Positions 841 to 31,778 are shown, counted from the stretch's first letter. The stretch: 64,000 nucleotides of DNA from Schmidtea polychroa (GCA_044892525.1 CM097885.1:17424001-17488000), one strand, 5' to 3'. The notes: a model not told the origin generated them from the letters alone. Numbers and translations: made by a program.

Positions 841-3493
841 TGTGACATCACGACAGTATAAACATTTCATGACATTATAAAACATTATCAAGCAATCATG
901 ATTTCAAAGACCGAGACTGATTGTGACTAATAACATTGATTCTTGAGCATGATAATTTTATTTTTGTGTGGACCGACCTCGGTCGTTCTTTTTCTTCATC
1001 TTTCAACCCATCCGTAGAATGTAGTATAATATTAGCCTTTTTATGTATGTGGGTATTGAGGTCACGACCCTGTAGCTCGTAGACCCAATTTGCATGTAGG
1101 CACTTGTAATATAGTGCAAGTATTCTGAAAAATAATTTTCTTCATCTTGTGATTTATATTGCGGGTCGCAATTTTATGGGCCCCGAGTTTTTTATGTTGG
1201 GCTAGAACTGACTTCTAGACCCAAACTTGAATTGTGACTGAAAGGTGCAGGTACACAACATACAAAAGCAAGAAGTTTAGTTAAATATGAAAATTACATC
1301 AAATAAACAATATTAACTAAAGGAGAAAGTAACAAAAACCTAAAACACAGAAATTAAATAAAATTATACAAAAGCAAGAAGTGATGCAAAAATAGAACTC
1401 AAAAACAACCAAATAAACACAGATAAGCATAAAACAGACTCAAACAACTTAAAAGACGATAAAAACCGAAAAAATTCCAGAAAAGCCCAGAACATTCCAT
1501 TAAAATGGCGATGACCATCACAAAAGCCAGCTAGAACAATAAAAGTTAGAGGAAATAAATAAATTAGTATTAAAAATAATAAATCTTAAAAAGAAATTCA
1601 CAAAACATCGGTTAAAATAAAAATTAAATTAAAAGCAAAATAGAATGTTCTGGAACCGTTCCAAATCCATCATGGACGGCAAATTAACGAAAAATAATTA
1701 AAGAATAAAAATATAAAAATAAAAACAAAAATTATGGCACAAAAATTGTCATTAAAAATAGCAAAATCGTAAAATAGAAAATTCTGGAATAAAAAGAATT
1801 CGAGTTTGTTTTAATGCATCAATACATACACGTGTACAAAATAGGTATATATACCGACACGTTTCGGTCATAAATCAATCTTTATGCCAATATTTTGCTG
1901 AAAAATTATTTTGGAGAATCATTAGTAAGCCTTTTGATTTGTTGTAATTTTATGTTATGTAATTATATTAATATCGACCTTTTATCTATTAAAAATATTT
2001 TTAAGATTTTATGTTTAGTAATTCTCGACGGATCAGCGGCGTCCGAGTACGTCTCTGATCGGTCCTGCATATAATTTTAAATTCGATTTCTCATGCACAC
2101 ATGCATTATGATTATCTATAACACTCTTTTTTGTTCGGGTCAGTTCGGAGGTCGAACTACTTCATGGTCCTGCCATGGAGTTAGGTCGAGGAAACCCTCC
2201 GCCTGACTCTTTGTATTTATGTAAGGTCGACCGTAAATGGTTGACTCAAAACTCAACACTAAGGTTTGTGGAAGTGGTCACAGTGGGGCCATGGAAGCAA
2301 TATTCTTCCCGACCTTGCACGTAATACAAATTTAAAATCAACATTAAAAATCCATGTCAAATATCTCTACAATAAGGTCTTAATCTGAGTAGAACTCATA
2401 CCTAATCTTACACAATTCTACAATCACCTTAATTAAGTCGGTTGATCAATAATAGCAATTCCAGTTGTACTTAAACATATGCCGAATCCGGTTTTGGTAA
2501 TAGGAATTTATAGTAACTCAAAGTAATAGAAATGATATAGTGTCCGGCATAGGTGTAGGTATAACTTCATCTAGTTGGGAATTCGAGGTTAATTACTATG
2601 TGAATAAAATCAGTCTACCTATAGATATTACAAATCTAACCGACTAAATTACAAGCGCCATCTTAAAAATTTATAAAAATATAAGTACTTATTACAAAAT
2701 TTACTAATTATAATCAAAATGCAAGTTGTAGATAATTATAAGATTTCAGATATAAAGCATACCGACCCTGAAACTATAAATTGGTAATGGAGAAGTCTTG
2801 ATAACAAATTTTAGATGGGGATAGTAGTAGATAAATTTTAGCATAAGGATCAATTAACTTAGAACTAGTTATGTATAGACTGTATATTCGTCAATATTCT
2901 GAAATTATAACCTAATAGTACCAAGAAATCTGCAAATAATTTCGGAAGACAATGTTGATAAAAAAGGGGTACTCGTAAAGAAGTACACGAGTCGAATATA
3001 AAATTATAATCCCTGAATTCTGAAATGACGAGTGGTGAAGTAATAAAGTGACAAATTGTAGAAATAGAAAACGAAAAAATTTCAAAGTACAAACTCATAA
3101 ATAAAATTATAAAATATAGAATTAGAATTTATAGAATATAAACTTATGAATAGAAAAAATTAAAAAACTATAAATTATAAAATATAAAATTGGCAATTAT
3201 AAAATATAAATTTATAAATTACGAAATATAAAATTATAAATTGTAAAGTATAAAATTATAAAGTATAAAATATAAAATTATAAAATATAAAATATAAAGT
3301 CATAAATGATTAAATTACAGACTATAATATATATAATTAGAAATTACAAATTTATAAATTGGAAAATAGAAAATTTTAAATTAGAAACAGAAATTTGTAA
3401 ATTACAACAAGTAACTTCCTAAATCATAGAATAGGAACCTCTAAAATGGGAAATATAAACTTCGAATTGTACCATATAAAATTATACTACTAG

Positions 3494-3920
3494 TATTATT
3501 ATTATTAACCCTAATATTATTGTTATTATTGCTGATATTACCATCATTATTACTATTATTCTCATTACCCCTAGTATTATGAATGTTATTATTATTACTA
3601 TATTATTATTATTATTATTATTACTACTATTACTATTATTATTATTATTATTGGTATTATTATTATTATTATTACTATTATTATTATTACTATTATTATT
3701 AGTACCAGAATGATTAGCATTATTATTATTATTATTATTATTATTATTATTATTATTATTATTATTATCATTATTATTATTATTATGATTTATTTATTAT
3801 TATTATTATTATCATTTTTTATTATTATCATAATTATTGCTATGATCATTCTCCCTAGTGTTATTCTTATCAACATTATGATTATCACCATTATTGTTAT
3901 TACTATTATTTCATTATTAA
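3494..3920. repeat. Degenerate (ATT)n microsatellite inside LTR-like copy 1
   Basis: Direct reading; produces the spurious poly-Ile ORF 3710-3958. Confidence 0.95.
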
Positions 3921-5006
3921 TTTCCAAAAATCAAAATTTGATTGAATTATCGATTTAGGATTTCCCCCACGACTAAATTTAGAACCTACCCCTTTACTCC
4001 AATAAAAATGACCATAATTCCAGAAATCTATTTTTAGTAACCCCCCTCGGAGAAAATGCTAGGACTATTAATTCAATAATAACATGAGTAGGTGCGCACA
4101 TATAGACATGTGTAAATGTAGGTAACTATACGTATCTAATAAGTTAATTTAACCCAGGCTCATCAGTGACGGATATATCTTAGTTAACTTAGCGGCCCCA
4201 GAAATTAAAAGTCAGGTAAAACCTCCATTAACCTAAACCAATTCATTGAGGACTAGGAATACATTGGGACAGTCGATACCAACCGTGGAACTCCACGGAA
4301 TCAGTCGCATGAATTATCGATAACTGACAAAAATTTATTTTACAAAAATCAAAAGCGATTAGCCAAAGAACATGCTAAATTAAAATTATTCAACAAAACT
4401 TCTAACACCACTAAATACAAATTAAACTAAAGATACCAACACAGAGTCATATAAAATTCCATTAGGGCTTTGAACAACCGGTCATTCCACCCGAGTGAAA
4501 GATTCCCACCAAATATCTCTAAAATCGAAAAGCTATGGTTAAAAAATTAAACTACTTACAAGCAAATCAAAGCGGACTATACCACTCATGACGAGTACAA
4601 CCGAAGGAAAGGCAAGCAGACGAGAAGCTAAGCTCGTTGTTAATACCTGTCGCCTCAGCGTACCCGAATTTAGTGGCAAAAGATTTAAACCCTGAAATTT
4701 CAAATTTGTTATAATATTTAAATTAAAATACATAAAATATAATTTAAATGATCACTTAGTGATAAATACAAATTTAGAGAAAAATAGCTAATTAAAACAA
4801 GAGGATTGTTGATAAAATTTTTTTTTGATTATTAGTAGACAAAATATGGAACTTCATTCTATTGTTCCTAGGATTATAGATGTTAGTCTTAAAATAAAAT
4901 ATTTCTTTTTATTTTCAAATTCTTAAAGGGAAAAAGGGTCAACAAAATCCTGTGTTTAACGTCGTATTACAATCAGTATAAGTGGCTTGATTGTTCTTTT
5001 GTAGAA

Positions 5007-29510: not shown

Positions 29511-30694
29511 TGCAAAATATTACTAATATATAAAAAAAATGGTTTGTTAAAAAGAAAATATTTCAAATTATCAAAATTATGTTAATTATAAATAGGTGAT
29601 TTAAACACCTGGGATTAATATTTTAATTCACAAATTTGTGAATCCATTGCTTTTAGTTTTTCAGACTTTTTCAGCGGGCATAACCCAACTCAAAGGCTGA
29701 GACAAATGTTTTACAATATATGCAGTAGATGTTACCAATCCTCCAATATAATAACACTAAAAATAAATTACAATTTTATAGTAATCCGTTATAATACCTT
29801 ACCAGACTTTATTCTTTTCCTTTACTTGTTTTGCTCATCTTTTTGAATTTATTTTCAATATTTTCGATATTTGTACTTTCATCTCCATCTAGACTATCTT
29901 TCAGGCGTCTCACAAACTTAACACAAACTGAACAATTTTTAAATATAATAAAAATAAGTGCCAAATACCTTCGCAATTATTTTCATTAACTGTAGCTGAC
30001 ATTACATAGTAAACAATGATTAAAAAAAAAAACTGATAAAATTTTCATTGCAAAATATTACTAATATATAAAAAAAATGGTTTGTTAAAAAGAAAATATT
30101 TCAAATTATCAAAATTATGTTAATTATAAATAGGTGATTTAAACACCTGGGATTAATATTTTAATTCACAAATTTGTGAATCCATTGCTTTTAGTTTTTC
30201 AGACTTTTTCAGCGGGCATAACCCAACTCAAAGGCTGAGACAAATGTTTTACAATATATGCAGTAGATGTTACCAATCCTCCAATATAATAACACTAAAA
30301 ATAAATTACAATTTTATAGTAATCCGTTATAATACCTTACCAGACTTTATTCTTTTCCTTTACTTGTTTTGCTCATCTTTTTGAATTTATTTTCAATATT
30401 TTCGATATTTGTACTTTCATCTCCATCTAGACTATCTTTCAGGCGTCTCACAAACTTAACACAAACTGAACAATTTTTAAATATAATAAAAATAAGTGCC
30501 AAATACCTTCGCAATTATTTTCATTAACTGTAGCTGACATTACATAGTAAACAATGATTAAAAAAAAAAACTGATAAAATTTTCATTGCAAAATATTACT
30601 AATATATAAAAAAAATGGTTTGTTAAAAAGAAAATATTTCAAATTATCAAAATTATGTTAATTATAAATAGGTGATTTAAACACCTGGGATTAA
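29081..30694. repeat. Three near-identical 538-bp tandem units containing MANF exons 1-3
   Basis: Units start at 29081, 29619 and 30157 (TATTTTAATTCACAAATTTGTGAATCC) and differ at very few positions. Confidence 0.95.
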
Positions 30695-31778
30695 ATTTTT
30701 ATTTCTATTATTAATTGAAAATTTAATTTTTAAAAGGAAAAGAAATATGGATAATTAAACTCAACTTTAATTTAATCTGGATTGCCTGAATTAAAATTAA
30801 GTATTAATTTTTGGTATTTTGATTGAACGGGAAATTAACCCAACATAAACCTGAATTATGTGTGGTGTTTTAATAAATAATTATTAACTTTCACTAGAGA
30901 GTTGACATGAAACATGAGCGTGTGTGCATGAATTGGAAAAAATGATGTATGTGGGAGATAAGGGGGATGAATAGGGTATGGTATTGGGAAGACAATCTGG
31001 TGAAGGGACCAGGCCAAATCGGACACAAGCCTTCTATCGGCAGTCCGTGAACCCAGTAGAGTGCTCGACAATTACAGTGCAAGTAGTGCGCTCACTTTTT
31101 GCGAGCACTCACCCTCTTGATACAGTACCAACGTTGATCATTCAACGGGTATCAAGCGGTAAACAATGTTGTATCTTGGGTTACGCTGGCAACAGCACTA
31201 AAGAGCAAAATATTTGATCATCAGTAACCCACCAGTCAAAACGTGCGATATAATAAAATGAATACGTAATAAAAACATGAGTATGTTGAGGCAGTTGAAT
31301 TTTTATACGCCTTTAGTCAGGTAGATTTCCTATGCATGTGTAAACTTGAGCCACACGAATTGTGGAACGAAAACAGTCTACTTTTGGCATGCTCTCGTAT
31401 CAAGATATAACGCTCGCAAAAATTTTGCTCTACGTCAAAACGAAAAAGTTTAACTTATATAGGAAGTTCGTGACTCTTGGTCAAGCTTTTAGTTTGAACT
31501 CGAAACCCATAATCCAATTTACAAAACACTAAGTGCTGAATTGGTTGAAGTCCATTTCAAAGCCATTTCAATAAATAATCTATGGAATAGAAGTTACTGT
31601 ATACCTTACTCAAACAATTAATAATAAATGAGTATCTATACGATGTCATATCATCAAAACTCGACTCACGCCTTAGATAGTGATATGAACATTGAAGGAA
31701 ACTATTAATTGTATAAATTACATTAAAGTATTAAATAATACCACAAACACATTTCATAACCGTACAACTAGCCTTTAA

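Follow-up and report, generated by a model that had tools for sequence, protein, structure and literature searches.

Two copies of a very long terminal repeat, of the kind that flanks long terminal repeat (LTR) retrotransposons, were found in a stretch of 64,000 nucleotides from Schmidtea polychroa (GCA_044892525.1, CM097885.1:17424001-17488000), which is referred to in its entirety as the window (GC content, ca. 28%). An earlier note, made from the sequence alone, had described the two copies as one family with an exchangeable internal slot, and much of that description stood. The termini TGTTGGG...CCCACCA were present in both copies (Table 1), TATA boxes lay 652 bp and 722 bp inside them, and the GTCA target site duplication (TSD) of copy 2 was recovered at 25133-25136 and 31235-31238. 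The blocks said to be shared by the copies are real, with an identity of only 67-81%; self-comparison placed them at 1194-1837, 2129-2443, 3945-4046, and 6166-6408, corresponding to the 5' end, the GC island, the stretch ahead of the slot, and the 3' end. The gap in homology also exists, but its BLAST edges were at 4046/28328 and 6166/30984 (copy 1/copy 2), and homology did not resume at 6130/30890 as proposed. The slot of copy 2 does contain a MANF gene with introns (Pfam ARMET_N and ARMET_C), antisense to the LTR, but further pieces are present there besides MANF. The two GC-rich open reading frames (ORFs) of copy 1, in contrast, had been taken for exchangeable cargo and proved to be native, conserved genes of the LTR, which the lineage of copy 2 lacks.

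Table 1. Positions, in window coordinates, of the two LTR copies, their parts, and the adjoining element end
Feature	Position	Strand	Evidence or remark
3' portion of last accessory ORF (341 aa total) of 38-kb element	1..840	+	ORF extends upstream of window; Pfam gave no match over the cut-off
3' untranslated internal end of element, conserved GGGCCCC-containing motif	841..1194	+	82.7% identical to same end of gag-only elements
Copy 1, 3' LTR (5,214 bp) of element G000:C1:17392384-17430408	1195..6408	+	99.4% identical 5' LTR, PBS-like motif, TAAT TSD
TATA box, initiator-like TCAT, predicted donor (GTAAG at 1925); predicted first exon of LTR transcript	1846..1929	+	Spacing of these motifs is conserved in LTR 5' ends
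TATAAATT minisatellite and ATT tract ahead of slot	3100..3920	.	TRF
Variable slot of copy 1, holding exon-like piece X (~4569-4690)	4047..5000	-	X in 25/60 sampled LTRs
Native ORF1, 118 aa, basic C-terminal RGRP motif	5007..5363	+	dN/dS median 0.15; AG 1-2 nt before ATG
Native ORF2, ~143 aa, start codon predicted to arise by splicing	5584..6014	+	dN/dS median 0.12; YAG/TG acceptor
Conserved 3' block of copy 1 LTR (predicted U5)	6166..6408	+	81% identical to 30984-31234
Copy 2, solo LTR (6,098 bp) of gag-only 21-kb derivative	25137..31234	+	GTCA TSD
3' remnant of older NDUFA7 cargo	28521..28725	-	83% to host NDUFA7 locus L134
Captured MANF gene, ATG at 29510, three introns retained, premature stop and frameshifts	28731..29540	-	ARMET_N/C; ~95% to host L054
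538-bp unit (MANF 5' half and 82 bp of D-type piece), three in tandem	29080..30699	.	TRF 99%; only in copy 2
3' piece common with LTR variant D (L102)	30623..30983	.	97% to L102
Conserved 3' block of copy 2	30984..31234	+	Self-comparison

Copy 1, previously regarded as a solo LTR, belongs to a complete element. A genome search with its first 306 bp gave 2,132 first-look candidates, of which 40 were scored, and one of these was a 5' LTR located 32.8 kb upstream. The whole element is 38,025 bp long, with LTRs of 5,764 and 5,214 bp. Downstream of its 5' LTR, after an 8-base spacer, there is a motif like a primer binding site (PBS), which we take to be of the tRNA-Pro type. An exact pattern for this LTR-PBS junction had 388 matches, compared with 0 for the control; the spacer (L011:8148-8175) is present in all 388 by construction of the pattern. 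Pfam matches in the polyprotein were in the order Gag, CCHC knuckles, MATH, a Monjiviricetes-type fusion domain, reverse transcriptase (RT), RNase H (RH), integrase (IN), and ankyrin, with the Env-like domain between Gag and Pol. These matches span ca. 14.2 kb, and the reading frame is broken in this copy. Accessory ORFs of the TRAF, BIR, and RING type follow the polyprotein (Pfam BIR at 4e-15, RING, zf-TRAF, and MATH). A Pfam search at E<0.01 gave no match for BCL2-like, dUTPase-like, or SUMO-like motifs, some of which were found by HHpred in PMC6431247.

By its TG...CA ends, short TSD, PBS, and RT-RH-IN order, this is a Gypsy-type LTR element. No polypurine tract was found before the 3' LTR in either lineage; a conserved GGGCCCC motif and a T-run are located there instead. 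The carrier is a member of the Burro/GYPSM1 clade by size and domain order, an assignment at the level of the clade rather than of any one of Burro-1 to -4, and the family is thus not new. Burro/GYPSM1 of Schmidtea mediterranea exceeds 30 kb and has a polyprotein of ca. 4,750 codons with an Env-like fusion domain between Gag and Pol, accessory BIR and RING/TRAF ORFs, and some BCL2-, dUTPase-, and SUMO-like motifs found by HHpred (PMC6431247). The S. polychroa element shares the size of more than 30 kb, the long LTRs, the Gag-CCHC-MATH-Env-RT-RH-IN-ankyrin order, and the BIR and RING/TRAF ORFs. It differs in that section 7 of PMC6431247, on Burro, mentions no LTR-encoded ORFs, LTR cargo region, or gag-only derivative. 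Over ORF1 of the 38-kb element's 5' LTR (L011 ~5965-6516), ca. 530-550 bp are duplicated in tandem; the 3' LTR lacks this duplication, the size of which is close to that of the unit triplicated in copy 2.

Copy 2 represents a separate lineage. A search with its first 364 bp gave 40 scored matches, which included 14 identical sequences at other places, many of them paired 15.5-16.7 kb apart. Five complete elements of this type had internal regions of 10.4-10.7 kb, none with RT or integrase (0/5), and in three of the five there was an unbroken ORF of 1,572 amino acids (Gag and CCHC). This ORF fuses Gag in frame to the C-terminal part of the polyprotein, which amounts to a double internal deletion of Burro. 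The derivative is 69-85% identical to the autonomous element, and its LTRs were 3-10 substitutions apart in all three pairs tested. With paired LTRs, a PBS, a TSD, and Gag kept while RT and integrase are absent, the copy 2 lineage is a young, nonautonomous, gag-only Burro derivative, which would be mobilised in trans. The TR-GAG and LARD elements of plants are nonautonomous LTR elements that likewise have long LTRs and a PBS, keep Gag or have lost coding, and lack RT and integrase; the gag-only Burro elements differ from them in the double internal deletion that fuses Gag to the C-terminal part.

The proposal of very long, integrase-inserted LTRs was upheld by a TSD survey. A perfect 4-bp TSD was present in 12 of the 14 elements with both ends known, and a 5-bp TSD in none (two rows represent one duplicated insertion, and for five more starts the end was out of range). 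The earlier note had suggested looking for full-length copies that contain a PBS and gag-pol, and such copies exist. Chimeric LTRs with a copy-1-type 5' part and a copy-2-type 3' end (L098 and L049-L053) indicate recombination between the lineages. A 30.5-kb duplication (L044-L048) contains the same MANF solo LTR twice. Two more decayed 3' ends of the same LTR clade are located in the window at 33190-33869, with an ORF2-like remnant, and at 36860-37080.

The host MANF gene (L054) is intact, with four exons, GT-AG introns of 41-46 nt, and non-LTR flanks. The captured span of ca. 1.34 kb includes the introns and extends from a point 660 bp ahead of the ATG to the 3' untranslated region. Searches at the DNA level and by family gave 562 and 590 first-look MANF candidates, which are not copy numbers; 40 and 150 of these, respectively, were scored. 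A premature stop at codon 65 was common to all 44 nonhost alignments, and none of the 42 near-full LTR-borne alignments was intact (alignment rows include repeated fetches and LTR pairs). All MANF cargo copies examined are pseudogenes, and because the early stop is common to every copy, the pN/pS of 0.49 (distinct substitutions) was not read as selection. MANF was found at many loci, in both LTRs of all five complete elements, in LTRs with seven different TSD sequences, and only in ORF-less LTRs. These distributions, with the candidate numbers, mean that a one-off insertion of MANF into the copy 2 solo LTR, or an assembly artefact, can practically be dismissed; the one feature that would fit it is the 538-bp triplication, which alone is unique to copy 2. 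The MANF version is thus not unique and the termini pair with 4-bp TSDs, the two points on which the earlier note had staked its interpretation. Upstream of the host MANF gene, 425 bp from its ATG, there is a Burro solo LTR of 5,283 bp (L062:8804 to L054:5086; ATAT TSD) that carries both native ORFs and has the orientation of the gene; it is missing from the captured copy and may affect MANF expression.

MANF is one of several genes carried in this way. Slot contents were catalogued in 60 5' LTRs, which were 60 of the first 61 LTR-PBS matches listed on contig 1, copy 1's own partner being left out. One or both native ORFs were present in 38 of these LTRs and none in 22. MANF was found in 8, NDUFA7 in 9, a fragment of API5 in 5, MTRFR-like cargo (L091 type) in 1, X in 25 (once together with API5), and four other types to which no gene was assigned in 7; the slot was unclassified in 6 of the 60, mostly broken up by nested elements. 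All 135 cargo rows that could be oriented were antisense to the LTR, and 13 of 148 were not orientable (rows include duplicates). The claim that the middle segment holds variable captured host genes was therefore borne out for MANF, NDUFA7, API5, and the MTRFR-like gene, and an intact host gene was located elsewhere for each of the four. These intact loci rule out that LTR-borne MANF or NDUFA7 replaces a lost host gene.

NDUFA7, with 206 first-look candidates, has its host gene at L134, with two introns; upstream of this gene there is a 315-bp insertion (L134:670-985) that is missing from the captured copies. The host API5 gene is at L157, and the captured piece is an internal fragment. For the L091-type cargo, the first 11 candidates for a host source were all LTR-borne, and a search for the RF-1 family then found L192, an RF-1-domain gene with a GGQ motif, presumably MTRFR/C12orf65. 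The NDUFA7, API5, and MTRFR-like cargos were each found in ORF-bearing and ORF-less LTRs alike. At least these four host genes are present as mostly broken LTR-borne copies at dozens to hundreds of genomic places. Two LTR-borne NDUFA7 copies (L125:1471-1851 and L126:1471-1851) have the full 127-codon open frame behind host upstream sequence and are possible candidates for expressed retrogenes. Exon-like splice signals were also seen in the slots of L067, L072/L114, L095, L102, and L113, for which a source was not found. A Pfam search of 87 antisense open stretches from 23 LTRs gave only a weak NDUFA7 match and missed API5 and MTRFR. Thus, slots without an assigned gene may still hold host genes.

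The cargos have also replaced and altered one another. The long-type MANF LTRs keep both ends of the NDUFA7 cargo, which indicates that MANF replaced the middle of NDUFA7. Copy 2 later gained a 3' piece from variant D and apparently triplicated the 538-bp unit; its match to L102 marks it as a recombinant between two cargo variants. Within NDUFA7, intron 1 was exactly lost in 20 of 26 aligned copies, both introns were kept in 4, and 2 were not scorable. In exon 2 and the 3' part, the best intron-less copies diverged from the host by 2-5%, and upstream by 6-12%; the values for intron-keeping copies were 10-19% and 6-15%, respectively, and those for L140, a more decayed intron-keeping copy, 21-30%. 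In L125 and L126, the ratio of informative sites for and against the host was 34:3 in exons but 11:15 upstream (P=3e-5), and four further copies had the same pattern. Exact intron loss together with exon-limited likeness to the host indicates that spliced host mRNA was the template from which resident NDUFA7 cargo was overwritten. In the API5 cargo, two host exons are joined exactly, in five of six copies by pattern and in the sixth by BLAST.

The native ORFs provide a context for the slot. Neither ORF had stops in the aligned part across 12 lineages, and both are under purifying selection (dN/dS ca. 0.13); the medians in Table 1 come from 44 of 66 usable pairs for ORF1 and 27 of 66 for ORF2, the remainder being saturated. 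ORF1 had no Pfam match and no usable ESM Atlas match, although we take its RGRP motif to be an AT-hook. ORF2 had weak, mixed matches in the ESM Atlas below the recognition level, and these were not used. The putative acceptors were present 1-2 nt ahead of the ORF1 ATG in 12 of 14 LTRs and at ORF2 in 14 of 14. A donor follows the TATA box and initiator-like motif in 13 of 14 copy-1-type 5' ends (8 of the 14 near-identical), and in all 13 the exon that it closes ends in A, which would supply the start of ORF2; in the ORF-less type, 8 of 10 donors were preceded by G. These splice signals suggest that the native ORF mRNAs have an intron, from ca. 1925 to 5004/5583, which would contain the slot. 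The slot is also predicted, more weakly than the intron, to lie within a long R region; the scan for poly(A) hexamers was too weak to place the R/U5 border. Among the matches listed for 3960-6440 in assembled contigs of three presumed-RNA runs and one unlabelled run, there was no joint or loose end at the predicted acceptors. For the MANF stretch, a look-up of RNA data sets that contain it listed none.

The most probable explanation for these findings is that, in LTRs of the Burro clade, the region after the ATT tract has repeatedly taken up host genes in antisense, the region likely being a tolerated intronic site, through template switching and recombination. Insertions would be tolerated because the slot would be in an intron of the LTR's own transcript, and entry would occur when RT switched template to host RNA. 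Spliced mRNA copied during plus-strand synthesis would yield antisense cargo, and antisense or unspliced templates would have been the source of the genes with introns and promoters. Cargos would then be swapped when co-packaged element RNAs recombined, which a long R region would favor. Introns in the cargo would be retained because the element RNA reads them backwards, whereas sense captures would be lost, since the element RNA would be cut at their splice and poly(A) signals. Most likely, the cargo hitchhikes without protein function.

Several observations weigh against this explanation. Only four independent genes have a known orientation, and thus the antisense bias rests on 4/4, for which the chance probability is 1/16. 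Cargo starts ca. 40-870 bp past the conserved anchor, and junctions so spread suggest a zone rather than a precise site. A host source was not found for X (9 of 88 protein matches examined, all LTR-borne), for D (6 of 40 scored places examined, all LTR-borne), or for three other slot types. X has an identity of 72-89% between lineages that are, for the most part, saturated at the synonymous sites of their ORFs; being more conserved than synonymous sites and having no known source, X may be a selected native element and not cargo. The start site (ca. 0.7 kb in), the intron, and the poly(A) site are all predictions, and poly(A)-like hexamers near the 3' block, present in 18 of 23 LTRs, are missing in copy 1's type, in DNA that is AT-rich. 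Of the two MANF junctions, the 3' one shares 5 nt, whereas at the 5' one a few bases are inserted and microhomology is not clearly seen. Furthermore, MANF, the MTRFR-like gene, and the first NDUFA7 capture hold introns and 0.2-0.7 kb of sequence upstream of the ATG, which spliced mRNA could not have supplied.

One possibility for these whole-gene cargos is that they entered at the DNA level, during break or stalled-fork repair beside the ATT/TA repeats from ectopic host DNA, with retrotransposition only amplifying them and RT switching confined to the spliced pieces. Such repair would carry introns and upstream sequence along, the slot adjoins simple repeats, and the MANF 5' junction would be in keeping with it, as would the DNA-level capture reported for animal Pack-TIRs (PMC8277862). 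However, both orientations would be expected unless sense captures were purged, and API5 and refreshed NDUFA7 prove that RNA templates were used at the same site. DNA-level entry, which departs from the template-switching explanation in one step only, is a plausible if somewhat doubtful alternative.

Read-through transduction, in which a Burro LTR downstream of a gene and facing it would have transcribed the gene backwards before RT switched back into a normal LTR, would account for antisense orientation, introns, and promoter sequence in one step, and a Burro solo LTR does lie close to host MANF. This solo LTR was rejected as the cause of capture, however, because its orientation is not the one required and the captured copy does not contain it. 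No reverse-facing LTR remnant was found within 14 kb downstream of host MANF or within the ca. 1-2 kb flanks of the NDUFA7, API5, and MTRFR hosts, although donor alleles may be lost. We consider this route unlikely.

It is very improbable that the cargo is adaptive for the element, whether because its antisense sequence gives rise to small RNAs or duplexes, with a dampening effect on stress or apoptosis genes of the host, or because it supplies a promoter. The variants with cargo are both young and abundant, the open frame is complete in two NDUFA7 copies and preceded there by host upstream sequence, Burro has BIR- and BCL2-like domains (PMC6431247), and planarian ping-pong piRNAs are concentrated on LTR sequence (10.64898/2026.01.28.702291), all of which would suit a benefit to the element. 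Yet the cargos are functionally unrelated, overwrite each other, and decay. A further reading, quite unlikely as a whole, is that the Burro LTR permanently traps genes in antisense. An intronic site within its giant R region would sample host housekeeping genes, be refreshed from their mRNAs, be traded between the autonomous and gag-only lineages, and turn element RNA and piRNAs against those host genes in stem cells.

Other features were also found in the window. Fragments at 10242-13445 (minus strand) and 51162-51455 (plus strand), for which the only Pfam match was Endonuclease_7 at 4e-05, resemble DNA polymerase B of the Polinton type; L087 is interrupted by a similar element. An HMG-box exon at 43753-44541 (minus strand; Pfam 1.9e-21), which we take to be TCF/LEF-like, is accompanied by more exon-like frames at 47537-47848 and 50112-50423. 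A decayed helicase-like fragment at 32270-32760 (plus strand), without a Pfam match and presumably Brr2/ASCC3-like, is upstream of the LTR remnant ending at 33869. The frame of 155 amino acids at 17458-17925 (plus strand) had no Pfam match, and we assume that it resembles the cysteine-rich end of a piggyBac-like transposase.

There are precedents for the capture of genes by LTR elements. In LTR-mediated retroposition, template switching at sites of microsimilarity brings in pieces of host mRNA, sometimes from several genes together, and the chimeras move as nonautonomous elements, maize Bs1 being cited as a case (PMC5131818). Those retrocopies replace internal ORFs and are mostly sense-transcribed, whereas Burro cargo is antisense and inside both LTRs, often keeps introns and upstream sequence, and has been serially overwritten and refreshed. 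Because it is inside the LTR, it is doubled and survives in solo LTRs. Of the hallmarks of the PMC5131818 class, intron loss is seen in API5 and most NDUFA7 copies, whereas MANF, MTRFR, and four older NDUFA7 copies keep introns; junction microsimilarity, examined in the MANF cargo, is seen at one of its two junctions. The Cassandra, Helenus, and Ajax TRIMs (PMC10886601) likewise have host-derived sequence inside the LTRs of nonautonomous elements, but this is one fixed small-RNA gene serving as a Pol III promoter in tiny LTRs, whereas Burro has alternating protein genes in LTRs of 5-6 kb with TATA motifs. Pack-MULEs and Pack-TIRs also amplify intron-containing fragments of several host genes, but they are DNA transposons (PMC8277862). 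Passages on Burro or LTR piRNAs in PMC8532177, PMC11410931, and 10.64898/2026.01.28.702291 mention no LTR cargo, and a title and abstract search, with the supplements and the original Burro description (Grohme et al. 2018) outside its scope, found no prior report of an LTR cargo slot. Thus, the element is known, and the cargo region in its LTR is apparently undescribed.

In the usual form of gene capture by LTR elements, which is already known, a single sense retrocopy lies between the LTRs. In Burro, one LTR region records serial captures, nested replacement, and mRNA-templated overwriting, each spread to many dated copies, and provides a natural data set on the use of host RNA by reverse transcriptase, including a route to antisense cargo and exact intron loss. 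The two LTR proteins, predicted to be spliced and under purifying selection, are unexplained accessory genes. LTR-borne copies with an identity of 78-98% exist in tens to hundreds for MANF, NDUFA7, API5, and the MTRFR-like gene and can confound annotation, read mapping, and RNA interference, and LTR-borne cargo may link transposon piRNAs to host mRNAs.

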